Positions 2,435 to 40,896 of a DNA stretch of 64,000 bases are shown piece after piece (the first letter of the stretch is position 1; the number at the start of each line of letters is the position of its first letter). The translations under genes and the position numbers were made by a program. The stretch comes from Gammaproteobacteria bacterium (GTDB lineage Bacteria > Pseudomonadota > Gammaproteobacteria > SURF-13): assembly GCA_038924245.1 (NCBI GenBank), contig JBCKVB010000001.1, positions 9,798-73,797 on the forward strand, read 5' to 3'. A model generated the notes under the pieces. The model saw only the letters and a program-made list of their open reading frames with translations. It was not told the origin of the DNA and did not search any database.

Positions 2435-2494
2435 CTTCCCAACACCAGCCTCGCCATCCATGGCGAGTCGTTCACCGCCTTCGGCGCTTCACCC

Positions 2495-3145
2495 TTATTT
2501 AAAAAGTGTGGTGTATGTTTGTACCGTGGCGCGAATATCGTCCTGACCAAATACACCGTGAATCACCGCCAGTATATCCGCGCCCGCCTCCACCAGCAGT
2601 GCACCGTTTTGCGCCGTGATGCCGCCTATCACCGCGATGGGCAGATGAAGTTTTGCTCGCGCCTCGCGTAATAATTTTATATCCGCCTGTACCGCTTCAG
2701 GTTTGCTGCGCGAGGGGAAAAAACGCCCGAACGCGACGTAATCCGCGCCCTCCTGCTCCGCCCGCAGCGCACGCTCCAGTGAGTTATAACAGGAGACGCC
2801 GATGATGGCGCGCGGCCCCAGCGCCCGCCTTGCATGGGACACCGTTGCATCTTCCGCCCCCAGGTGGACGCCGTCCGCGCCGATAATTTTGGCCAGCGCC
2901 ACGTCGTCATTGATAATCAACGGGACGTGATGCGCGCGGCACAGCGCGAGCAGCGCGCGGCCTTCCGCTTTGCGTTGCGCGCCGCCGCACTCCTTGGCGC
3001 GATATTGTAATAGCGCCGCGCCGCCTTGCAGCGCCAATTCAGACCGCTCGACAAGCTGCGCGGCGGAAAGCAGCGCCCGGTCCGCAATGGCGTACAACCC
3101 GCGCAATACCGGAATGTGACCGGCAAGTGCGGCGGTTTCAATCAT
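2495..3145 (-). CDS. thiE: Thiamine-phosphate synthase
   Basis: 216 aa; GLYAIAD...HLGAEDA...GVSCYNSLERA...AVIGGIT is the ThiE TMP-TENI fold. Confidence 0.9.
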   Translation of the reverse strand: MIETAALAGHIPVLRGLYAIADRALLSAAQLVERSELALQGGAALLQYRAKECGGAQRKAEGRALLALCRAHHVPLIINDDVALAKIIGADGVHLGAEDATVSHARRALGPRAIIGVSCYNSLERALRAEQEGADYVAFGRFFPSRSKPEAVQADIKLLREARAKLHLPIAVIGGITAQNGALLVEAGADILAVIHGVFGQDDIRATVQTYTTLFK

Positions 3146-3148
3146 GGG

Positions 3149-4000
3149 TTATTTCCTGCCTTCACGCGCCCAATAAAACCGGTTGGGCAGCGCCTGGCCT
3201 TTTCCGATATGGTGCGCGTGCTTCAGCGTCTCCCAGGTATAGCGCTGCGCTTCATCCACGGCGCTGAACGGCTCATTACCCTGCGCGAGCAGCCCCGCGA
3301 TGGCCGAGGCCAGCGTGCAGCCGGAGCCGTGATAACTTTCCGGCAAACGCTCCCAGTTAAATGACTGCAGACGGCGCCGATTGCCGTACAGGGTGTTCAC
3401 CACATCAGGCGTGCGCTCATGCGTGCCGGTGATTAGCACGTAGTCGCTGCCGTATTCCATAAGCTGCTGCGCGCAGGCATCCAGACTGTCGGCGGAGGGC
3501 GCGAAGCGGCGCGCCTCCAGACTGTTAGGGGTGAACACCGTGGTGAGCGGCAATAATAAGGAAATAATCACTTCTTGTAACGCGCCATCGGACAGACTCT
3601 GCCCCGATCCCGATGCGAGCACCGGGTCGAGCACCACCGGCACATGGGGATGTTGCGCAAGCAGGGTATGTACCGCCTCGGCGATCAGGTGGCTGCCGAG
3701 CATGCCGATCTTGAACGCCGCCACCGGCATGTCTTCCAGCACCGCGCGCGCCTGTTCGATGACCAGCGCGGTATCCAGTATTTGATAGTCCTTCACCCCG
3801 CGCGTATCCTGCACGGTGATCGCGGTCACCACGGGCGCGGCGATACAGCCCTGGCTGGCCAGGGCCTCGATGTCTGCCTGTATGCCTGCGCCGCCGCTGG
3901 GATCATGGCCGGCGAAAACCATGACTACCGGCACGCCCGCTGTAAGGGTATTTTTCACGGCCCTGCTCATTTGAGAAATTTTATCATGAGTGATGGGCAT
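3149..4000 (-). CDS. thiD: Hydroxymethylpyrimidine/phosphomethylpyrimidine kinase (alternative start at 3970)
   Basis: 283 aa; AGHDPSGGAGIQADIEA...KIGML...HGSGCTLASAIA matches ThiD. Confidence 0.9.
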   Translation of the reverse strand: MPITHDKISQMSRAVKNTLTAGVPVVMVFAGHDPSGGAGIQADIEALASQGCIAAPVVTAITVQDTRGVKDYQILDTALVIEQARAVLEDMPVAAFKIGMLGSHLIAEAVHTLLAQHPHVPVVLDPVLASGSGQSLSDGALQEVIISLLLPLTTVFTPNSLEARRFAPSADSLDACAQQLMEYGSDYVLITGTHERTPDVVNTLYGNRRRLQSFNWERLPESYHGSGCTLASAIAGLLAQGNEPFSAVDEAQRYTWETLKHAHHIGKGQALPNRFYWAREGRK

Positions 4001-4272: not shown

Positions 4273-4348
4273 TGGTGGGCGATGCTGGGATTGAACCAGC
4301 GACCCCTACCGTGTGAAGGTAGTGCTCTCCCGCTGAGCTAATCGCCCC
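4273..4348 (-). tRNA. tRNA-Val (anticodon CAC)
   Basis: Reverse complement GGGCGATTAGCTCAGCGGGAGAGCAC...CTACC TTCACAC GGTAG...TCGCCCACCA; cloverleaf with CAC anticodon and CCA end. Confidence 0.85.
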
Positions 4349-6011: not shown

Positions 6012-6087
<76 letters not shown>

Positions 6088-6120
6088 ACCACCAAAGAAG
6101 AATAGCACACACCATTTTCC

Positions 6121-6196
6121 GTCCCCATCGTCTAGAGGCCTAGGACACTGCCCTTTCACGGCGGCGACAGGGGTTCGAATCCCCTTGGGGACGCCA
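6121..6196 (+). tRNA. tRNA-Glu (anticodon TTC)
   Basis: GTCCCCATCGTCTAGAGGCCTAGGACACTGCCCTTTCACGGCGGCGACAGGGGTTCGAATCCCCTTGGGGACGCCA, near-identical to E. coli tRNA-Glu. Confidence 0.9.
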
Positions 6197-24427: not shown

Positions 24428-24540
24428 AGGCGGCCTGCACCGGCCCGACCCCGGCACACGGACGCGATTGCTGCCGCTGCTCCCTTCCGGGTCTGACGGG
24501 GTTCACAACCTGCCGTTGCGGGAGACCGGCACAGACCACC
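24428..24540 (-). ncRNA. ffs: Signal recognition particle RNA (4.5S RNA), small bacterial type
   Basis: Reverse complement GGTGGTCTGTGCCGGTCTCCCGCAACGG...GTCAGACCCGGAAGGGAGCAGC...GCGTCCGTGTGCCGGGG... contains the conserved domain IV motifs of E. coli 4.5S RNA; the 5' and 3' ends form a long G-U-rich helix. Confidence 0.8.
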
Positions 24541-24546
24541 ATAAAA

Positions 24547-24637
24547 TGGCGGAGAGGGCGGGATTCGAACCCGCGATACGGGGTTACCGTATACACGCTT
24601 TCCAGGCGTGCTCCTTCAGCCGCTCGGACACCTCTCC
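24547..24637 (-). tRNA. tRNA-Ser (anticodon GGA)
   Basis: Reverse complement GGAGAGGTGTCCGAGCGGCTGAAGGAGCACGCCTGGAAAGCGTG...long variable arm...GGTTCGAATCCCGCCCTCTCCGCCA. Confidence 0.85.
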
Positions 24638-32307: not shown

Positions 32308-32411
32308 GCGTAGCGGATCCGACGTACAATGTCGGGACCGGCGCTATGCGCCTTGACCCGACCTACTTGCCAAGTGTTGTATCTCGGCACGGCAACAACA
32401 AAAGTGACTCT

Positions 32412-32969
32412 ATGGCCCTTAAAGCAACCATTTTCAAAGCCGAACTGCAAATCGCCGACATGGACCGTCACTACTACCACGACCATGCCCTCACCCTCGC
32501 CCGCCACTCATCGGAAACCGACGAGCGCATGATGGTGCGCTTATTGGCCTTTGCCCTGCACGCCCATGAGGCATTGGCATTTGGCAAAGGGCTGAGCGCC
32601 GACGACGAGCCCGATCTCTGGCAAAAGGATTTAACTGGCGTCATCGAAACCTGGATAGACGTAGGCCAACCCGACGAAAAACGCATCCGCAAAGCCTGCG
32701 GCCGCGCCAACCAGGTATTCATCTACACCTATGGCGGCCGCAGCGCCGACATCTGGTGGGAACAAAACAGCGGCAACCTCGAACGGATCAAAAATCTGAC
32801 CGTGATGAACCTGCCACTGGACACCAGCCGAGCCTTAGCGAAGCTGGCGCGGCTCAAGATGCAGTTACATTGCACCGTTCAGGATGGACAGATTTGGCTG
32901 GCCGATAACGATGACCGGGTGCAGATCGAACTGGCGACGGTAAAAACCCCATCGGCCTCTCTTCGCTGA
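32412..32969 (+). CDS. yaeQ: YaeQ family protein
   Basis: MALKATIFKAELQIADMDRHYYHDHALTLARHSSETDERMMVRLLAFAL... closely parallels E. coli YaeQ. Confidence 0.85.
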   Translation: MALKATIFKAELQIADMDRHYYHDHALTLARHSSETDERMMVRLLAFALHAHEALAFGKGLSADDEPDLWQKDLTGVIETWIDVGQPDEKRIRKACGRANQVFIYTYGGRSADIWWEQNSGNLERIKNLTVMNLPLDTSRALAKLARLKMQLHCTVQDGQIWLADNDDRVQIELATVKTPSASLR

Positions 32970-33078
32970 CGCGGCCTCAAGGCGGCGGATGATAAAATGC
33001 CAAAAGGTAAGACGCGCCCCTTTTTTATTTCTCGAACGCACCTTGTAAATATGTCAATTTGGACATATACTTAGACCA

Positions 33079-33411
33079 ATGAGTAGGCAGAGCAAGCCGT
33101 TGGTGTGGCTGCATGGCGAAGTCAAAACGCCACCTTTTTCCGCCGCCGCAAGAATTGAAGTGGGTGTTTTAATGCGACGCCTTCAAGAGGGTGCCAATAT
33201 ATCGCTGCCGCATGCAAGGCCAATACCCACCATCGGCCGCGGTTGTCATGAATTAAGAATCCCCGACGAAAATCGCACTTGGCGCATTGTGTACTACGTT
33301 GATACGGTAGCCATCGTCATTCTTGATGTGTTTGCCAAAACGACAAGCCAAACGCCTCAGACGGTAATTGACGTTTGCAAGGCGAGACTGAAACGCTATA
33401 AATCAATTTAG
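33079..33411 (+). CDS. higB: HigB-like type II toxin (Gp49/DUF891, RelE/ParE superfamily)
   Basis: 110 aa; KPLVWLHGEVKTPPFSAAARIEVGVLMRRLQEGANISLPHARPIPTIGRGCHELRIPDENRTWRIVYYV...VFAKTTSQTPQ... Confidence 0.75.
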   Translation: MSRQSKPLVWLHGEVKTPPFSAAARIEVGVLMRRLQEGANISLPHARPIPTIGRGCHELRIPDENRTWRIVYYVDTVAIVILDVFAKTTSQTPQTVIDVCKARLKRYKSI

Positions 33412-33427
33412 CATGAGGGTAAATGTC

Positions 33428-33757
33428 ATGAGTACTGACAAATTAAAGCGTCTCCGAGCCGCTGGCTGGAAAGTCGGCAGCGCAGAGGATTTTCTGCAAT
33501 TAAGTGATGAAGAGGCGCGGCTCGTCGCACTCAAGCTCGCGCTGATTAGCGCGGTAAAAAAATCGCGCATCAAACGTAAACTCTCGCAAACTGACCTTGC
33601 GCAACGCATGAAATCGAGTCAATCGCGCATTGCTAAAATTGAAGCGGGCGATTCTTCAGTTTCGCTAGATTTGATCGTACGTGCGCTCATCGCAAGCGGC
33701 GCAACAACGCGCGATATTCAGGCGGCGTTTACGTCAAAAGAACGGATGGCGGCCTAA
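33428..33757 (+). CDS. higA: HigA antitoxin, XRE-family HTH (alternative start at 33413)
   Basis: HTH KLSQTDLAQRMKSSQSRIAKIEAG; directly follows higB with a 2-17 nt spacing. Confidence 0.75.
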   Translation: MSTDKLKRLRAAGWKVGSAEDFLQLSDEEARLVALKLALISAVKKSRIKRKLSQTDLAQRMKSSQSRIAKIEAGDSSVSLDLIVRALIASGATTRDIQAAFTSKERMAA

Positions 33758-33928
33758 CTGTTGCAGCAGCAACGAATACCGCGTTTTGGCCACGCTCGAC
33801 GCGCACCAACACCATGAAGCTCGGCATCATGCGCGAAGCTCGACTTGCATTACGCGACCGTAAGACGTCTTATCAAGGCGGTGGAAGATAAAATGTCATA
33901 AGGCAAGATGTGCCCCCTTTCCCCCACG

Positions 33929-34366
33929 TCAGGTGCGGGCATGGTTTTTCAGCCAGTCCGCAGGGCTTAAGCAAGTGATGGCCGCAGGGGAACGTCCAAG
34001 CATTTCCTTGTCCAGGGTAATCAGGGGAGCGCTCATGCGGCGCGCGAGGGCGACATAAAGGGCATCAGCGCCGCGCAGGAACAAGTTTTGTGCAATGGCC
34101 TCGGCACTCGATGCCAAGTCGGAGTCAACAGGATAAAGCTCAATTTCCAGGAGGGCGCGCATTTCGCGGATGACCCGCGCGGCGTAATCAGGATTGCGCG
34201 TCGGGCGGGAAAATGCGCCTGCTATTTCGACGAACAATGTCGCCGGAGAACATAAAGTGACGGGGTGGGCAACGGTTGCTTCGAGAAAATCCGCGCTGAC
34301 CGAGTGCGCCGGCTCATTTTTCTTGAATGCCGCGACCAGAACGGATGCGTCAATAACAACGCGCAT
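33929..34366 (-). CDS. vapC: PIN-domain toxin VapC (start at MRVVIDASVL)
   Basis: PIN acidic residues (D at VIDASVL, E...D); paired with an upstream overlapping antitoxin. Confidence 0.75.
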   Translation of the reverse strand: MRVVIDASVLVAAFKKNEPAHSVSADFLEATVAHPVTLCSPATLFVEIAGAFSRPTRNPDYAARVIREMRALLEIELYPVDSDLASSAEAIAQNLFLRGADALYVALARRMSAPLITLDKEMLGRSPAAITCLSPADWLKNHART

Positions 34367-34625
34367 CGCGGTCTTCTTGAAGCTGCTGCAAGGCCGATTT
34401 TTTACTTTTCCAGGCAATTGCGTTTTGCTCGGCAAATTTTTCCAGCTTGGTGCGGAACGCCTTGGCGCGTGCCTGTTGCGGCTTGGCTGCAACCCCAGAC
34501 GGCGCGCCTTTTAGTTCCCGCTCCACCGCCGCAGTCACCAACTGCTTCAGCGTCTGACCCCGCATCAAGGCGGCAGCCTTCACCGCACGGAATAGTTCAT
34601 CGGGCATTTCAATAGTGGTTTTCAT
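34350..34625 (-). CDS. vapB: VapB-type antitoxin (start at MKTTIEMPDEL)
   Basis: Small DNA-binding N-terminus MKTTIEMPDELFRAVKAAALMRGQTLKQLV; 17-nt overlap with vapC. Confidence 0.65.
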   Translation of the reverse strand: MKTTIEMPDELFRAVKAAALMRGQTLKQLVTAAVERELKGAPSGVAAKPQQARAKAFRTKLEKFAEQNAIAWKSKKSALQQLQEDRDARCY

Positions 34626-34714
34626 GTCATCTTTCCAACAAACGTTCAGGGTGCACAAGCATCATACCCATAAATATGGGTATGTATCAAGCCGCCAGCC
34701 TGGCCCCTTTTTAC

Positions 34715-34981
34715 TTATCGGTAAATTTCGCGCCGGTTGCCGACCTGCACCACAAGGACGCGCAAAGCGCCATCCTGAATGTCGCAAATCACCCGGCAAT
34801 CGCCCACCCGGTAACGCCAGAAGCCGCCCAGCGGGCCAGTCAATGCTTTGCCTGTGCTGCGTGGGTTTTCCAGCCCGGCGATACGCTCGTCCATGAAATC
34901 AACGATGCGCCGTGCCGTCTGCTTGTCGAGCTTGCGTAGCTGCCCCTTGGCCGTCTCGGCGTAATCAATCGTCCAGGCCAA
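34715..34981 (-). CDS. RelE/ParE-family type II toxin
   Basis: 88 aa; ...GKALTGPLGGFWRYRVGDCRVICDIQDGALRVLVVQVGNRREIY matches the RelE/ParE C-terminal consensus. Confidence 0.8.
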   Translation of the reverse strand: MAWTIDYAETAKGQLRKLDKQTARRIVDFMDERIAGLENPRSTGKALTGPLGGFWRYRVGDCRVICDIQDGALRVLVVQVGNRREIYR

Positions 34982-35192
34982 GGGCTGCTCTCACGTCTGC
35001 GGCGGAATGCACCTGTTCTTGCCCCTTGCGGACACGCTCCAGCACATCAGCAGCAAGGTAGTAGTCCTCCATTTCCTCGATGCCCTGCTCGATGATTTCG
35101 CGCAGGTAGTACGCCTTTGTGCGCCCGGTATGGGATGCGAGGTAGGCTAGCCTTTGCTCGATTTCAGGAGCGAGGCGAATCGAAGTTGCCAT
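34965..35192 (-). CDS. RelB/ParD-like ribbon-helix-helix antitoxin
   Basis: 75 aa; MATSIRLAPEIEQRLAYLASHTGRTKAYYLREIIEQG; overlaps the start of the downstream toxin. Confidence 0.7.
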   Translation of the reverse strand: MATSIRLAPEIEQRLAYLASHTGRTKAYYLREIIEQGIEEMEDYYLAADVLERVRKGQEQVHSAADVRAALGLDD

Positions 35193-35347
35193 GTCAGAGC
35201 CTCCAATTAAATACGTGTATTCACTGTATCACAACACCGTTGTCTTGACCAGCCGGTGCTGCCTCGCGCCGGTTCTATGACCTCGCGCGCTGCACGCTGC
35301 TTTTAGAGCTTGCGGCGCGCCCGCGGCAAACCCACCACCCCGGCGAA

Positions 35348-35614
35348 GTGCTGCGGAAAGACGTGCTACCCGCCTTGGGCATCACCCAAACGGAATTTGC
35401 CAGCCGGCTGGGGGTATCGCGCCTCACCGTGTCGGAACTGCTGCACGAAAAGCGCGCCCTATCCCCGGATATGGCGGTACGCCTGGGCAAGCTGCTCAAC
35501 ACCACCCCGGAAAGCTGGCTGAGAATGCAATACGCCGTGGACTTGTGGGAGTTGACCCACGGCGAGAACGCCAAACGGTATCGAGGCATCAAGCCGCTGG
35601 AAATGGCGGCCTAA
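35348..35614 (+). CDS. HigA-family antitoxin homolog (HTH), orphan and apparently N-terminally truncated
   Basis: VLRKDVLPALGITQTEFASRLGVSRLTVSELLHEKRALSPDMAVRLGKLLNTTPESWLRMQ...; the conserved HPGE lies upstream in frame (…THHPGEV) but no ATG/GTG/TTG start is available there; no adjacent higB. Confidence 0.55.
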   Translation: MLRKDVLPALGITQTEFASRLGVSRLTVSELLHEKRALSPDMAVRLGKLLNTTPESWLRMQYAVDLWELTHGENAKRYRGIKPLEMAA

Positions 35615-35649
35615 GTTTCGCCAAGTGATAAAGGGTTGCGTCCACTTTG
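35506..35649. repeat. Direct repeat A (higA 3' end plus a 35-bp tail); identical copy at 37236-37379
   Basis: About 143 bp identical between the two loci. Confidence 0.8.
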
Positions 35650-35654
35650 TTTAG

Positions 35655-35800
35655 CTCCGCGGTCATCAACAAGCGCGCTGGCGGCATGGGTTTGATCTCC
35701 GGACGCAAGGCGTTCCAGAGGCCGCTGAAGGATGGCGCTGAGTTGCTGCACGCGATAACAGGATGTGTACCTGGAAAAGGTCGTGACCGTCGCGTGACGG
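35655..35800. repeat. Direct repeat B (encodes the C-terminal fragment ...[37 protein letters not shown]... of an unidentified gene); diverged copy at 36990-37135
   Basis: About 85-90% identity between copies; the copy-2 reading frame is intact to a TGA while copy 1 has a 1-bp insertion. Confidence 0.7.
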
Positions 35801-35949
35801 GCGTAGCGCGTGCAGCGTGGATACTTCCAAGGCGGAACACTTTTTCTTAGAATAGCCGTCCAGATGTGCTAAACTTAGCACGTAAGCGGCTGACATATTG
35901 CCGAATGCAGGTCAGATCGTAAACCGATCTCTTAGGAAGGAGCCAAGCT

Positions 35950-36513
35950 ATGCCACAGGTCGCCAGAGCCGAAGCCCTCATGCCCTCACAAATCAAGTTC
36001 CATTTCGATCCAGAAAAAGCCGTAGAGGTGATTCTCTACATCGCTAATCGTGTTGCCGATACGGGCTTTCACCGCATTTCCAAAATTCTTTATTTCTCCG
36101 ACCGGGATCATTTGGCGAAGTACGGGCGCTTCATCTGTGGCGACAGTTATGTCGCCATGAAGCATGGCCCAGTCCCGAGCGGTACTTACGATATCCTCAA
36201 GCACGTACGCGGTGATGGTTTACCGTGCCTTGTTCCCCATGCCGCTGAATCCTTCAGCGTCGAAAACGGCAACAGAGTTATTCCACTCAAAGACGCTGAC
36301 CTCGGCGTGCTGAGCGACTCTGAAAGAGAATGCCTGGATGCGGCGATTACCAAGTATGGAAAAATGCCGTTCAAGAAACTCACCGAACTGAGTCACGACA
36401 GGGCGTGGAATTCGGCCGATGAGAACGAGTTCATCGAGGTAGAACAGATCGTCGCCACGCTACCAGACACCAAGCATTTGCTGGAACATCTCGCCAATCC
36501 CTACCCCGATTAA
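35950..36513 (+). CDS. Panacea (DUF4065) domain protein, PanA/SocA-like candidate antitoxin
   Basis: 187 aa; ISKILYFSDRDHLAKYGRFICGDSYVAMKHGPVPSGTYDILK fits the Panacea-domain core (KLQKLLYFA...G.PL....F.A...GPV....Y); strong GGAAGGAG RBS. Confidence 0.65.
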   Translation: MPQVARAEALMPSQIKFHFDPEKAVEVILYIANRVADTGFHRISKILYFSDRDHLAKYGRFICGDSYVAMKHGPVPSGTYDILKHVRGDGLPCLVPHAAESFSVENGNRVIPLKDADLGVLSDSERECLDAAITKYGKMPFKKLTELSHDRAWNSADENEFIEVEQIVATLPDTKHLLEHLANPYPD

Positions 36514-36519
36514 GCCGAC

Positions 36520-36978
36520 GTGCAAGTCTGGGATCGTCTTCCACCAGAGGAGCAGCGCAAATACATCAGCGCACGTCTGACACCCGGCCGGGTGCTACTG
36601 CTTTACTGCGACTTCACAATACCGCCGAAGGACAAGTTTCTCGTCCTTGCCTGCATCGAACCGGAACCGTTGTTTCTGGTCATTAACTCCCAACTATCCG
36701 AGTTCATACGAAAACGGGAATGGTTGCTTCAATGCCAAGTCAGCATCAAACATGAAGACCATCCATTTCTTAAACACCATTCCTACATAGACTGTACGAG
36801 CGCCCACAAAGTCACATCGCGTGACATCTATGAACAACTCGAAAAGGACATCAAAAAGGTAAAAGACGAAATCAGCAAAGACACCCGCGATCAGATTCGC
36901 GCCGCCGTTAAATTCTCGAAGACACTGCCTGCCAGACACAAATTAGACATCCTGGCTGCGTTAGGTCAAAACACCTGA
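36520..36978 (+). CDS. Hypothetical protein, candidate toxin partner of the Panacea-domain gene (GTG start 6 nt after the upstream stop)
   Basis: 152 aa with no recognisable family; translationally coupled to the Panacea gene; the two-gene cassette is flanked by repeats B/B'. Confidence 0.45.
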
Positions 36979-36989
36979 TGCACAGGCGG

Positions 36990-37135
36990 TGCGCACCGCG
37001 GTCATCAACAAGCGCGCGGACGGTATGGGGTTGATCTCAGGACGCAAGGCGTTCCAGGGGCCGCTGAAGGGTGGCGTTGAACTGCTGCACGCGATACAGG
37101 ATGTGTATTTTGAACAAGCGGTCACCATCGCGTGA
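36990..37135. repeat. Repeat B' (diverged copy of 35655-35800)
   Basis: See repeat B. Confidence 0.7.
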
Positions 37136-37204
37136 TGCATGCAGGGCCGTAGCGCCGAATGGTTAACTTCCACATTCGGCGCAATGCCATTCGGTTATTG
37201 CGCC

Positions 37205-37345
37205 TACCGCGCTGCTGCACGAAAAGCGCGCCCTACCCCGGAAAGCTGGCTGAGAATGCAATACGCCGTGGACTTGTGGGAGTTGACCCACGGCGAGAAC
37301 GCCAAACGGTATCGAGGCATCAAGCCGCTGGAAATGGCGGCCTAA
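37205..37345 (+). pseudogene. higA remnant: 3' portion of a HigA-family antitoxin gene with an internal deletion
   Basis: ...LLHEKRALP|ESWLRMQYAVDLWELTHGENAKRYRGIKPLEMAA is identical to the 3' end of 35348-35614 but lacks about 45 bp between short ccc(c)gg repeats. Confidence 0.65.
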
Positions 37346-37379
37346 GTTTCGCCAAGTGATAAAGGGTTGCGTCCACTTT
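37236..37379. repeat. Repeat A' (identical copy of 35506-35649)
   Basis: See repeat A. Confidence 0.8.
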
Positions 37380-37656
37380 GGTCGAGGCGGTGGCATTCCA
37401 AAGAAAGGGTTGCGTCACCTTTGTGTGTGGGTAGAATCGAGCAGCAAAAGCCGGATATTTTTTTGGCAGGTCTGCTTGACAGATATAAAGTATAGGCCTG
37501 ACCGCGATGATCGGCCTGAGAACAAAATTAAACTACTAAAATATCAGTATTGATTAACATTGTTCCAATTATGAGTGTTGCAAATTGCACTTTATAGTGG
37601 ACCCCGAATTTGAGACAGTAGTTTAAGCTGTAGTCCGATGAAGAAGGAGTCGGGCG

Positions 37657-37950
37657 ATGAGCGGAACGAAGCGAAAAGTATTTGGGGCGGAATTCAAGGC
37701 CAAGGTGGGCCTGGAAGCGATCCATGGGGTCAAGACACTCAACCAGATCGCGCAGGAGCACGGCGTGCATCCGGTGCAGGTAGGCCAGTGGAAGAAAGAG
37801 ATATTGGAACGCGCTGGCAGCCTGTTTGAAGGCAAGCGCGGCCCCAAGGCGGTGAACGAGCACAGCGAGCCAGAGCGGCTCTACGGCGAGATCGGCCGGT
37901 TGAAGATGGAGTTGGACTGGCTCAAAAAAAAGTCCGGGTTGGGCCAGTAG
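37657..37950 (+). CDS. IS3-family transposase OrfA (HTH)
   Basis: 97 aa; KVFGAEFKAKVGLEAIHGVKTLNQIAQEHGVHPVQVGQWKKE...leucine zipper LKMELDWLKK. Confidence 0.85.
   Translation: MSGTKRKVFGAEFKAKVGLEAIHGVKTLNQIAQEHGVHPVQVGQWKKEILERAGSLFEGKRGPKAVNEHSEPERLYGEIGRLKMELDWLKKKSGLGQ
37924..37932 (+). promoter_or_regulatory. Programmed -1 ribosomal frameshift slippery site A AAA AAA AG
   Basis: Run of 8 A's followed by G at the orfA/orfB overlap, as in IS3/IS150-type elements. Confidence 0.7.
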
Positions 37951-37985
37951 CAAGCAGGCGCGCATGGATCGAGCCTGAAGCGGTA

Positions 37986-38867
37986 ATGCCGATGGTACGG
38001 CAGTGTGAGCTGGCGGGTGTCTCCCGCGCCACGGTGTATGCGCAGCGTGTAACCCAGCCGATAATCGAACAGGACTTGGAGTTGCTGCGCCTGATCGACG
38101 AACAGTACACCCGCCGCCCGTTTTACGGCAGCCGGAAAATGGTCTCGTTCCTGAGGGTGCAAGGCCTCCGGGTCAACCGCAAGCGTGTGCAGCGGCTGAT
38201 GCGCATCCTGGGCTTGGCGGGCACGGCGCCGGGGCCGGACACCAGCCGCCCGCACCCGCGGCACAAGGTCTATCCGTACCTGTTGCGCGGCGTGGCGGTG
38301 ACGAGACCGAACCAGGTGTGGAGCACCGACATCACCTACATCCGGCTGACGCATGGCTTCGTCTACTTGGTGGCGGTGATCGACTGGTACAGCAGAAAAG
38401 TATTGAGCTGGAGAATCAGCAACACGCTGGACACGGCGTTCTGTGTAGACTGTTTGGAAGAAGCATTACAGCGGTATGGCAATCCTGAGATATTCAATAC
38501 CGATCAGGGCTGCCAGTTCACCAGTGAGAGCTTCACTGGTGTGCTCAAAGCCAACGGCATCGCCATCAGCATGGACGGACGCGGGCGGGCACTGGACAAC
38601 ATCTTTGTGGAACGGCTATGGCGCAGCGTGAAATACGAAGACGTATATTTGAAAGGCTACGCCAACCCGATGGAATTGATGATCGGACTGACGGAATACT
38701 TTGTGTTTTACAATGGCGAAAGACCGCACCAGTCGTTAGGCAACCGTACACCGGCAGAGGTATACGCGACGGCCAGCGGGGGCGGCGCAAGGATCGTAGA
38801 CAAGTTCAGCAAGAATGGGGCAGCGCCATGCGGCTGCGAGCAGGACGGACAGACCAGCTTAAACTAG
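37986..38867 (+). CDS. IS3-family transposase OrfB (DDE/rve integrase core); expressed as an OrfAB fusion from about 37930
   Basis: 293 aa; ...WSTDITYIRL...VIDWYSRKVLSW...NTDQGCQFTS...FVERLWRSVKYE DDE motif. Confidence 0.85.
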   Translation: MPMVRQCELAGVSRATVYAQRVTQPIIEQDLELLRLIDEQYTRRPFYGSRKMVSFLRVQGLRVNRKRVQRLMRILGLAGTAPGPDTSRPHPRHKVYPYLLRGVAVTRPNQVWSTDITYIRLTHGFVYLVAVIDWYSRKVLSWRISNTLDTAFCVDCLEEALQRYGNPEIFNTDQGCQFTSESFTGVLKANGIAISMDGRGRALDNIFVERLWRSVKYEDVYLKGYANPMELMIGLTEYFVFYNGERPHQSLGNRTPAEVYATASGGGARIVDKFSKNGAAPCGCEQDGQTSLN

Positions 38868-39205
38868 ACTGATTTCTGTCTTGACGGATGGGTCCACTGT
38901 AAGCGGTCCTGCGTCAACTGAATATCTCTTTGCTGGTTCTTCTTGCTGCCACCGCCTAGAAGAATGACCAATGCATTACCCACCTGACCGAAATAAATCC
39001 GGTAGCCCGGGCCAAAATCAATTTTGTATTCGGAGATTCCCTTCGCCAAGTGTTTGGCATTTTAGAAGTTGCCCTGCTCCATCCGATAGAGTCCTGTAGC
39101 CACCTTCGCTGCGGCCACTGGATCAAGCCGACTAAACCAGCGACTGAACGGTGACTTACCGTCCGGCTCCAAGTATTCGCTAACCTGTCGTAGCGTTATG
39201 TCCAT
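38864..39205 (-). pseudogene. HigB-like 'addiction module killer' toxin gene with an in-frame TAA at 39062-39064 and its 3' end replaced by the IS3 terminus
   Basis: MDITLRQVSEYLEPDGKSPFSRWFSRLDPVAAAKVATGLYRMEQGNF*NAKHLAKGISEYKIDFGPGYRIYFGQVGNALVILLGGGSKKNQQRDI fits the family consensus (…GNFGD.K.VG.GV.E.RID.GPGYR.YF…ILLCGGDK..Q..DI). Confidence 0.7.
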
Positions 39206-39347
39206 ATGGTAACTTATAAGTTACTTTTGTCAATACGCGGAAGGGGGATTGATGAATCAGTAGCGTAGCGATACGCGCCATAGACAATCATCGCATCGCC
39301 GAGTGATAACATGCTTTCCGCGCGGCAAGTTGAGGGCCGCCCCATGC

Positions 39348-39752
39348 TCATGCCTGCCTCACCCCTTCCAGAAAATCCTTTAACGATAGCATCCGGACTC
39401 CCCGATAGACGTCCAACCGCAGCATCGCCTGATCCCCTGTTACGATCACGTCCGCCTTTCCGGTAACAGCGCACTCGAGAATCCGGTTGTCTGGCTCATC
39501 GTGCAGTATCTTGAGCCGGCGACGGGGTGTTACGACCTCTGCGAGTTCTGACAGGTATACCGCTGTACGCGCCAGTTGCTCCAGATTGCGGTCAAATTTG
39601 CGCGCCAGGACATTGAGTACTTCGTGGATGATATCCTTGGAAATAGTCAGATGCACATCGCCTTCGATCACCCTGAGGATGGCCGCCTCCGCCCGGCCAC
39701 CCGGGATGGCAAATGCTGAAATGAAAATATTGGTGTCGAAGACCGCCCTCAC
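39348..39752 (-). CDS. PIN-domain toxin (VapC-like)
   Basis: 134 aa; MRAVFDTNIFISAF...ECAVTGKADVIVTGD. Confidence 0.75.
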   Translation of the reverse strand: MRAVFDTNIFISAFAIPGGRAEAAILRVIEGDVHLTISKDIIHEVLNVLARKFDRNLEQLARTAVYLSELAEVVTPRRRLKILHDEPDNRILECAVTGKADVIVTGDQAMLRLDVYRGVRMLSLKDFLEGVRQA

Positions 39753-39997
39753 TTGCGGAGGTAACGCTCCAGGTCCTTCTCTGTAAGAAGGCCCTTTTCC
39801 TTGGCCTTGCGACTCCAGTAGCCCTGAATGCCGCGCAGGTCGGCTTTAAGCCGTGACGCGCGTGCAGCCCGCAGCGCGTCCTGCACCACGGCGCTCAGGG
39901 TTTTGCCCTCAGCGCGAGCAATGGCCTCTGCTTCTTTGGCAAGCTCGGGCGAAAGCGAGATAGTCTTTTTGACGGCGGTTCCCATAGACGGCCTCAC
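39749..39997 (-). CDS. Ribbon-helix-helix (CopG/Arc-type) antitoxin for the PIN toxin (alternative start at 39985)
   Basis: 82 aa; KKTISLSPELAKEAEAIARAEGKTLSAVVQDALR; ATGA start/stop overlap with the PIN toxin gene. Confidence 0.65.
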   Translation of the reverse strand: MRPSMGTAVKKTISLSPELAKEAEAIARAEGKTLSAVVQDALRAARASRLKADLRGIQGYWSRKAKEKGLLTEKDLERYLRK

Positions 39998-40056
39998 ATC
40001 AGATAGTATGAATAAATCATACCAGCATGGGTTGGCCTGTCAAGCAGACACCAAGA

Positions 40057-40149
40057 TGGCGGAGAGGGTGGGATTCGAACCCACGTGGCGGGATGAACCG
40101 CCCATCCGATTTCGAGTCGGCGCCGTTATGACCGCTTCGGTACCTCTCC
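40057..40149 (-). tRNA. tRNA-Ser (anticodon CGA)
   Basis: Reverse complement GGAGAGGTACCGAAGCGGTCATAACGGCGCCGACTCGAAATCGGATGGGCGGTTCATCCCGCCACGTGGGTTCGAATCCCACCCTCTCCGCCA; long variable arm. Confidence 0.85.
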
Positions 40150-40218
40150 GGGGAAATTTTGACAACGCCGTGGCGGTGCGCAACGGCTATTTTAACTTAA
40201 ATAAGGCGACCCGTCCTT

Positions 40219-40896
40219 TCAGCCATTAAGCAATTGGCGCACCAGGGGGATGGTCAGTTTGCGCTGCGCGGCGAGGGAGGCGATATCGAGGCGTTGCAGG
40301 AATTCAAGCAGCCCTGACAAATCGCGTGTTGAGCGCGCAAGCAGAAAACGTCCCACCTCATCTGGCAGTTCAATACCCCGATTGCGCGCGCGCTGTTGTA
40401 GGGCGGCCAGCTTGTCCGCATCCTGCAAGGGGTGCAGTTGCAGCACCAGCCCCCATGAGAGCCGGGAGGCCAAATCGGGCAACATGACCGGCAATACCGC
40501 TGGCGCCGTAGCGGCGGCCATGATCAGGCGCGCGCCGCTGTCGCGCACGCGGTTGTACAAATGGAACAGCGCCCTCTCCCACTCCGGATGACCGGCGATG
40601 GCTTGCACGTCATCCAGACAAATCAGCGCAAGCTGCTCCAGTCCATCAAAAACCGTAGTGGAAAGTTCCCTTATCTGAGCCAGAGGAAGATAGGCTGACT
40701 GTAACTCCTGTTGTGCCGCCGCCTGGCAAACGGCTTGCAGCAAATGAGTTTTGCCCGATGCGGGCGCTCCCCATAAATAAATCAGCGGCTGCGCGGCGTC
40801 TTGCAGCGCCGCCATGACCTCGTGATTGCCGCCTGGGATAAAATTGGCAAGGCTCGCGCTGTCGTTAAGCGTGACTTGCAGTGGCAACTGAGTCAT
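40219..40896 (-). CDS. hda: DnaA regulatory inactivator Hda
   Basis: 225 aa; AAA+ Walker A GAPASGKTHLL and DnaA domain III-like features. Confidence 0.85.
   Translation of the reverse strand: MTQLPLQVTLNDSASLANFIPGGNHEVMAALQDAAQPLIYLWGAPASGKTHLLQAVCQAAAQQELQSAYLPLAQIRELSTTVFDGLEQLALICLDDVQAIAGHPEWERALFHLYNRVRDSGARLIMAAATAPAVLPVMLPDLASRLSWGLVLQLHPLQDADKLAALQQRARNRGIELPDEVGRFLLARSTRDLSGLLEFLQRLDIASLAAQRKLTIPLVRQLLNG

Follow-up and report, generated by a model that had tools for sequence, protein, structure and literature searches.

What do two adjoining genes on a gammaproteobacterial contig do together, when the first encodes a Panacea-domain protein and the second a product that is recognised by no family model? 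The genes, here called panA (ORF1) and panT-like (ORF2) after the open reading frames (ORFs) in question, occupy positions 35950–36978 of a 64,000-nucleotide (nt) stretch of contig JBCKVB010000001.1 (Gammaproteobacteria bacterium, lineage SURF-13), the whole of which we call the window and in which all unqualified positions are counted. An earlier note had proposed that they form a novel toxin–antitoxin or defence pair of the PanA–PanT kind, the second member being unclassifiable. We found that the pair is a real, well-conserved PanAT-type module, which makes it an unannotated addition to a known type and not a novel system, and that its second product is, according to structure prediction, a divergent MazF-fold protein. 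The reading that we prefer, at a probability of roughly 0.7, is that of a horizontally acquired type II toxin–antitoxin module in which a Panacea antitoxin would hold a MazF-fold toxin in check; gene anatomy and the literature on related pairs suggest the toxicity, the neutralisation and the RNase activity that this reading entails.

A Panacea gene and its downstream partner

The pair and its upstream region comprise the following features.

35841–35949, + strand: upstream leader and probable promoter region, including the Shine–Dalgarno sequence AGGAAGGAG
35950–36513, + strand: panA (ORF1), ATG start, 187 amino acids (aa); stand-alone Panacea-domain protein, putative antitoxin
36511–36522, + strand: junction TAA-GCCGAC-GTG, consisting of the panA TAA (36511–36513), the 6-nt spacer GCCGAC and the panT GTG; without a Shine–Dalgarno sequence
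36520–36978, + strand: panT-like gene (ORF2), GTG start, 152 aa; predicted MazF/Kid/CcdB-type barrel, putative toxin

Both reading frames, and the GTG that opens the second one 6 nt past the stop of the first, lie exactly where the earlier note had placed them. The panA product contains the peptide ISKILYFSDRDHLAKYGRFICGDSYVAMKHGPVPSGTYDIL and matches the Pfam family PF13274 (SocA_Panacea) over residues 44–153 with 78.7 bits (E = 7.9e-22; cut-off 25.7), which bears out the Panacea/SocA-like core that had been recognised in it; in PHROGs it matches phrog_1281 (E = 3e-23).

PF13274 is named after SocA, the antitoxin of the type VI SocAB system of Caulobacter crescentus, which carries the same domain, and PanA might likewise hand its toxin to ClpXP for degradation rather than inhibit it. 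A weak match to the SocA equivalog NF047745 of NCBIfam (33.2 bits, E = 3.7e-8) points the same way, but it falls far below the cut-off of 190 bits, and the ClpXP-adaptor mechanism of SocAB is not indicated here. Moreover, PanAT pairs have been described as type II systems with direct complexes (Kurata et al. 2022, PNAS, PMC8832971), and a stand-alone Panacea protein neutralises its toxin by direct contact (Ernits et al. 2023, PMC10440598). We regard delivery of the toxin to ClpXP as very improbable. Membership of SocAB itself is ruled out by the equivalog score.

The Shine–Dalgarno sequence AGGAAGGAG lies at 35934–35942, ending 7 nt ahead of the panA ATG, and is kept across the close clade of homologous pairs together with the ATG-CCA-CAG start of panA. 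The segment 35841–35947 (about 107 nt 5′ of panA) shares 73% identity with the sequence that precedes the closest homologous pair (locus L028, 5144–5247), and the promoter probably lies within 35841–35949. Close-clade members also retain the 6-nt spacer and the GTG start of the second gene; in distant members that gene starts with ATG, at −1 to 15 nt from panA. Because no Shine–Dalgarno sequence is visible before the second gene in any close-clade or distant member compared, its translation is probably coupled to that of panA.

The partner has a predicted MazF-type fold

Searches of Pfam, NCBIfam, PADLOC and PHROGs gave nothing significant for ORF2. A word-indexed search returned just 17 relatives, each with an identity to ORF2 of 55% or more and each either unnamed or labelled ‘hypothetical protein’. 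A profile built from these relatives matched 592 proteins at E ≤ 1e-10 among 1.84 billion cluster representatives, and 1,209 when the limit was relaxed to E ≤ 1e-3; the partner therefore belongs to a large unannotated family, which comprises no fewer than 1,209 clusters formed at 50% identity. Among the 150 profile matches listed, nearly all are 130–160 aa long and align with ORF2 from end to end.

A first structure prediction, with 15 close homologues in the alignment, was useless (predicted local distance difference test score, pLDDT, 41.7). With a 145-sequence alignment of diverse family members the prediction reached a pLDDT of 97.3 and a predicted template modelling score (pTM) of 0.91. 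Foldseek comparisons of this model with the PDB and with viral models gave only MazF/PemK proteins as top matches, with CcdB below every MazF/Kid match. The model consists of six strands (β1 24–30, β2 37–45, β3 51–56, β4 73–76, β5 88–97 and β6 114–117) and a helix after β6 (120–132), an element order that we take to be the topology of Bacillus subtilis MazF. To these it adds an N-terminal helix (9–19), an inserted helix (100–109) and a C-terminal helix (138–150), about 50 extra helical residues in all, none of which is found in MazF. The model thus firmly predicts the SH3-like barrel of MazF, Kid and CcdB: ORF2 belongs to the MazF/CcdB superfamily by fold and stands outside PF02452 by sequence. 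The earlier statement that the second ORF has no recognisable family holds for the sequence databases, while the label ‘unclassifiable’ gives way to this predicted fold.

Conservation within the family singles out polar residues of the barrel. K39 and S88 are invariant across the 145 family members, in which G23, N56, Q73, L84 and C92 are near-invariant; within the closer set of 34 members, K37 does not vary either. In the model K39 stands at the start of β2 and N56 at the end of β3, which are presumably the topological positions of the catalytic residues R25 and T48 of B. subtilis MazF; K39 and N56 may thus be the equivalents of R25 and T48, matched by the order of secondary-structure elements rather than by residue-level superposition. 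Against five homologues, the ratio of non-synonymous to synonymous substitution rates is 0.08–0.13 for the panT-like gene and 0.05–0.08 for panA. Both genes are under strong purifying selection.

The pair is conserved across phyla and horizontally acquired

Does the partner keep company with Panacea genes elsewhere? The earlier note had named this neighbourhood check, and the answer is uniform: in searches (tblastn) with both window proteins over 28 related loci (L001–L028), a Panacea gene stood directly upstream of the ORF2 homologue at 26 of 26 informative loci, the other two being a 38-residue fragment and a contig that opens within the gene. Ten neighbourhoods retrieved by exact protein look-up likewise have a Panacea protein of 170–189 aa directly upstream, and the other surrounding genes vary. 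The two proteins run in parallel in their identity to the window pair (PanA/partner 83%/81%, 78%/68%, 47%/38% and 49%/34%). These pairs come from genome bins of Gammaproteobacteria, Gallionellaceae and Nitrosomonadales and from one Ignavibacteria bin; the pair as a whole spans several phyla and unrelated neighbourhoods and extends to E. coli and Serratia phage OS31, with Salmonella in the same protein clusters.

The G+C content of the pair is 50.9%, that of the islet in which it lies 55% and that of the flanking chromosome about 60%. The pair is a horizontally acquired unit; its low G+C content and its many unrelated neighbourhoods are better evidence of joint acquisition than the direct repeats around it, which are described below.

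The phage copy is that of Serratia phage vB_SspS_OS31 (locus L029, 3399–4429, which is MT843276.1, 13602–14632), where the pair corresponds to genes p23 and p24, both annotated as hypothetical. The two genes overlap by one base; p23 matches PF13274 at 81 bits and p24 is 41% identical to ORF2. They lie between the antiterminator gene Q and a methyltransferase/lysis block, a typical moron position. In a DNA search, 46 complete E. coli genomes out of 5,426 matched the phage panA in its 5′ part. The chromosomal pairs in E. coli occupy 2459–3480 of locus L031, 1444–2480 of L032 and 1432–2480 of L033. All three of these inspected loci hold a Panacea gene, its product 44% identical to that of the window, and after it a gene for a ‘hypothetical protein’ of 153 aa with 46% identity to ORF2; the pair sits at a prophage edge, adjoining a truncated fragment of dusA (tRNA-dihydrouridine synthase) and a PrtN-family gene. 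An example of the E. coli pair is WP_223156504.1 with WP_000900143.1. The E. coli and Salmonella protein clusters have about 170–180 members, some of them present on at least 1,000 contigs. A plasmid search gave no match, nor did an alignment-based scan of viral contigs.

Flanking genes were noted at L001, L005, L020–L021, L023, L025, L027 and L028. Homologous pairs often have as neighbours restriction–modification genes (the S and R subunits of type I systems, an N6_N4 methylase with ResIII, an MmeI-like enzyme), further toxin–antitoxin pairs (MazEF, VapBC, HEPN/MNT), SLATT, an SLFN-like helicase or integrative-element Prim-Pol genes. These flanks are defence-island or mobile-element contexts.

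Such surroundings raise the question of whether the same pair protects against phages, through abortive infection or prophage-mediated exclusion, with PanA sensing infection and releasing the effector. Because this proposal concerns the role of the pair, it is compatible with a toxin–antitoxin mechanism. Many loci adjoin restriction–modification or defence genes (N6_N4 methylase with ResIII, type I S, MmeI-like, HsdR, HEPN/MNT, SLFN-like helicase, SLATT), and the pair takes moron-like positions, between Q and the lysis genes in phage OS31 and at the dusA prophage junction in E. coli; Panacea has also been proposed to be a sensor domain (Ernits et al., PMC10440598). However, toxin–antitoxin modules gather in such islands regardless, and the neighbours of the pair in the window are ordinary toxin–antitoxin pairs, with no defence genes. 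No PADLOC model fits ORF1 or ORF2, and we found no paper on anti-phage activity of a Panacea and MazF-like pair. Defence is thus a tentative alternative as regards role, to which we give perhaps one chance in a few. A bolder version of the same idea, in which a MazF-fold effector with Lys, Asn and Ser in place of Arg and Thr and about 50 more helical residues would have a target or chemistry distinct from those of MazF, Kid and CcdB and, with PanA as its sensor, would make up an uncatalogued, widespread abortive-infection system of phages and prophages, we consider unlikely.

Relation to known PanAT pairs

Whether the toxin–antitoxin module that we prefer is also a new one can be judged against the survey of PanAT systems, which reported 1,268 predicted pairs in 88 toxin clusters with a predominantly antitoxin-first gene order (Kurata et al. 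2022, PNAS, PMC8832971). In that survey a pair was recognised by a Panacea match, by genes lying no more than 100 nt apart, by its conservation in different species and by a conserved neighbourhood of at most three genes. For the pair in the window the Panacea score is 78.7 bits, the gap 6 nt, adjacency 26 of 26 loci, and the flanks differ among neighbourhoods; the proposal of a PanA–PanT-like two-gene module is thereby upheld on every in-silico count.

The claim of novelty does not survive the same comparison. A Panacea gene with a MazF-like toxin has been published before, as several predicted clusters and two validated pairs: clusters T5 and T6 were linked to EndoA/MazF/PemK by HHpred, T8 was labelled ‘MazF’, T9 was assigned to PemK by CDD and T1 members were labelled ‘mRNase’, with WP_083201923.1 (T6), WP_116809181.1 (T5), WP_073354223.1 (T8) and WP_077635758.1 (T1) as example members (PMC8832971). 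The validated pairs, from Pseudomonas moraviensis (T6) and Bifidobacterium ruminantium (PanT WP_026646888.1), are toxic, are neutralised and specifically inhibit protein synthesis, and formation of a PanA–PanT complex was shown for the P. moraviensis pair (PMC8832971). MazF/PemK is among the commonest toxin folds of the Panacea network (Ernits et al. 2023, PMC10440598).

The window pair resembles these PanAT pairs with MazF/PemK-like toxins in its stand-alone Panacea antitoxin without an N-terminal domain, in placing the antitoxin first, a few bases ahead of the partner gene, in a partner that lacks a conserved-domain match and has a MazF-like predicted fold, and in a patchy, mobile spread over phyla and phages. 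It differs from cluster T5, which HHpred linked to MazF at 99.5%, in that the profile comparison of ORF2 with MazF is not significant, and from MazF-like PanTs in general in that ORF2 is about 150 aa long, with extra helices. Attempts to place ORF2 in one of the clusters T1, T5, T6, T8 and T9, for which the supplements list accessions, gave no assignment. A degenerate pattern of the P. moraviensis PanA N-terminus matched nothing in genome or metagenome contigs, the primer-derived 5′ sequence of the P. moraviensis PanT gave one chance match, inside a purN-like gene, and among the ORF2 family members collected none begins with MPGN and none has NNF at its end. The E. coli family accessions are not among the Kurata or NetFlax table entries listed.

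The pair also differs from other systems that use this barrel. In MazEF, PemIK and Kis–Kid, whose toxins belong to PF02452, the antitoxin is of the AbrB/SpoVT-type MazE kind, whereas the antitoxin here is Panacea; ORF2 has no PF02452 match, carries about 50 extra helical residues and has Lys and Asn at the topological places of the catalytic Arg and Thr. CcdAB of the F plasmid likewise has a different antitoxin, CcdB scores below all MazF and Kid structures in the fold comparison, and gyrase targeting is unsupported.

No new class of system is opened by the pair. What it adds is a further MazF-fold partner in the Panacea antitoxin network, together with a fold and a likely function for a large family of ‘hypothetical proteins’ that is represented in prophages of E. 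coli and Salmonella. The unusual conserved residues could reveal how much drift the MazF active site allows, and the E. coli homologues make toxicity, the specificity of RNA cleavage and anti-phage activity easily testable.

Proposed mechanism and alternatives

How would such a module work? We propose that both genes are carried on one bicistronic mRNA. Because the toxin cistron has no Shine–Dalgarno sequence and begins 6 nt past the panA stop, it would probably be translated only by ribosomes fresh from panA, which would hold the toxin at or below the level of the antitoxin. PanA would bind the toxin, protein to protein, and neutralise it directly; once PanA is lost or triggered, free toxin would arrest growth, the likeliest route being sequence-specific cleavage of RNA that blocks translation, as in MazF.

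Several results weigh against this reading. The scan for consensus elements found neither a sigma-70-type promoter nor a + strand intrinsic terminator for the operon. None of the 145 ORF2 family members has a Pfam family match, PF02452 included, and the family profile matched no solved structure and no MazF among PDB sequences. Profile–profile comparison of the family (hhalign) gave a probability of 14% with B. subtilis MazF, which is not significant, 1% with a 6-sequence MazF alignment and 1% with a 126-sequence one (the MazF side included the B. subtilis, E. coli and Kid sequences). No arginine is invariant among the 145 members, and the MazF catalytic pair is therefore not conserved in its original form. 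The barrel shared by MazF and ORF2 is also that of CcdB, a gyrase poison, and fold alone is thus insufficient for RNase activity. Finally, several MazF-like PanT candidates were non-toxic in E. coli (Kurata et al. 2022, PMC8832971). A link between ORF2 and MazF at the level of sequence was accordingly rejected, the Pfam search of the 145 members, the comparison of the profile with PDB sequences and hhalign all remaining below significance.

These points bear on two alternatives. ORF2 could be toxic without being an RNase, its barrel serving another target, as in gyrase poisoning of the CcdB type, or an undescribed activity. The MazF Arg/Thr pair is not conserved, its place in the family pattern being taken by the invariant K39 and S88 and the near-invariant K37, N56, Q73 and C92, and both the non-significant profile comparison with MazF and the roughly 50 helical residues beyond MazF would suit such a departure. 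Yet the conserved polar residues of ORF2 lie at the place of the MazF active site, and the best, weak hhalign alignment to B. subtilis MazF (probability 14%) is colinear from β4 to the C-terminal helix and pairs the invariant S88 with S73; moreover, the validated MazF-like PanTs block translation (PMC8832971). A toxin of this other kind seems to us distinctly unlikely.

Alternatively, the pair might not be a toxin–antitoxin module at all: ORF2 would then be a non-toxic partner of PanA, such as a decayed MazF-fold regulator that binds RNA or DNA, and the adjacency of the genes would reflect some other joint function. ORF2 lacks the canonical catalytic residues, and eight PanT candidates, some labelled MazF or mRNase, proved harmless in E. 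coli, although the authors of that work point out that such proteins may still be toxic in their native hosts (Kurata et al., PMC8832971). Against a harmless partner stand the strong purifying selection on both genes, the invariant polar residues kept in the barrel, and the antitoxin-first order and probably coupled start, which are strictly conserved across phyla and mobile contexts. We give this alternative an outside chance only, and retain the type II module with a MazF-fold toxin as the preferred account.

The surrounding islet and its repeats

The pair lies in an islet of about 7 kilobases (kb) at 33.0–40.0 kb (33000–40150), between yaeQ (32346–32969) and a tRNA-Ser(CGA) gene (40057–40149), which is followed by hda (40219–40896). 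Besides the Panacea pair, the islet contains a Gp49-like gene with a helix–turn–helix (HTH) gene, PIN with a ParD-like gene, ParE with a ribbon–helix–helix (RHH) gene, an orphan HigA-like HTH gene, an IS3-family element, a split Gp49-like gene and PIN_3 with RHH. The toxin–antitoxin islet described in the earlier note is therefore present, the Gp49/HTH, PIN/ParD-like, ParE/RHH, HigA-like HTH and PIN_3/RHH genes all being found. No integrase was identified among the ORFs within about 31–41 kb, which were scanned against Pfam.

Two direct repeats enclose the pair.

35504–35649, + strand: outer repeat D1, left copy (D1a), perfect, 146 nt; 3′ end of the higA-like gene plus 35 nt
35654–35809, + strand: inner repeat D2, left copy (D2a), outside the mobile module
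36993–37155, + strand: inner repeat D2, right copy (D2b), 85–89% identical to D2a
37235–37380, + strand: outer repeat D1, right copy (D1b), perfect; within an internally deleted higA remnant, 37193–37345

The order is D1-D2-[pair]-D2-x-D1. In the inner repeat, 35654–35757 is 89% identical to 36993–37096 and 35758–35797 is 78% identical to 37096–37135, and with gaps the similarity runs on to about 35809 and 37155. A 20-nt core is present in the window in exactly two copies, where 0.03 occurrences would be expected by chance. The 3′ half of the HigA-like gene recurs, with an internal deletion, at 37193–37345; over its final 146 nt, which include 35 nt past the stop, this second copy matches the first at 100%. 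The diverged repeats that the earlier note saw bracketing the pair are thus real, but its description covered the inner pair and missed the perfect outer one (35504–35649 = 37235–37380), and its use of them as a sign of acquisition fails. At the 28 related loci examined (L001–L028) the inner repeat is missing throughout, so it does not mark the ends of the module; we read the repeats as the outcome of a local rearrangement in which a segment with higA was involved.

Three other identities for the inner repeat were rejected. As a coding remnant, it shows no Pfam match in the + strand frame tested and no codon-position bias. As a structured RNA, it gives folding z-scores of −1.1 to +1.7 and no Rfam match. 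As an integron cassette or attC-type site, it has only two copies in the window, no inverted repeats and no folding signal.

Further features of the islet and the window were noted alongside. The HigA-like HTH antitoxin gene (35348–35614) has no adjacent toxin gene. The IS3-family element (37657–38867) comprises orfA (HTH_Tnp_1, 37657–37950) and orfB (rve integrase core, 37986–38867), with ends judged by eye to lie at about 37572 and 38919; a Gp49/HigB-like toxin gene, split into minus-strand ORFs at 38864–39049 and 39062–39205, is overlapped at its 3′ end by the right end of the element. Elsewhere in the window, a small signal recognition particle (SRP) RNA gene (24434–24532, minus strand) lies beside a tRNA gene (24550–24637), and three further tRNA genes are found in 4276–4347 and 6012–6193.

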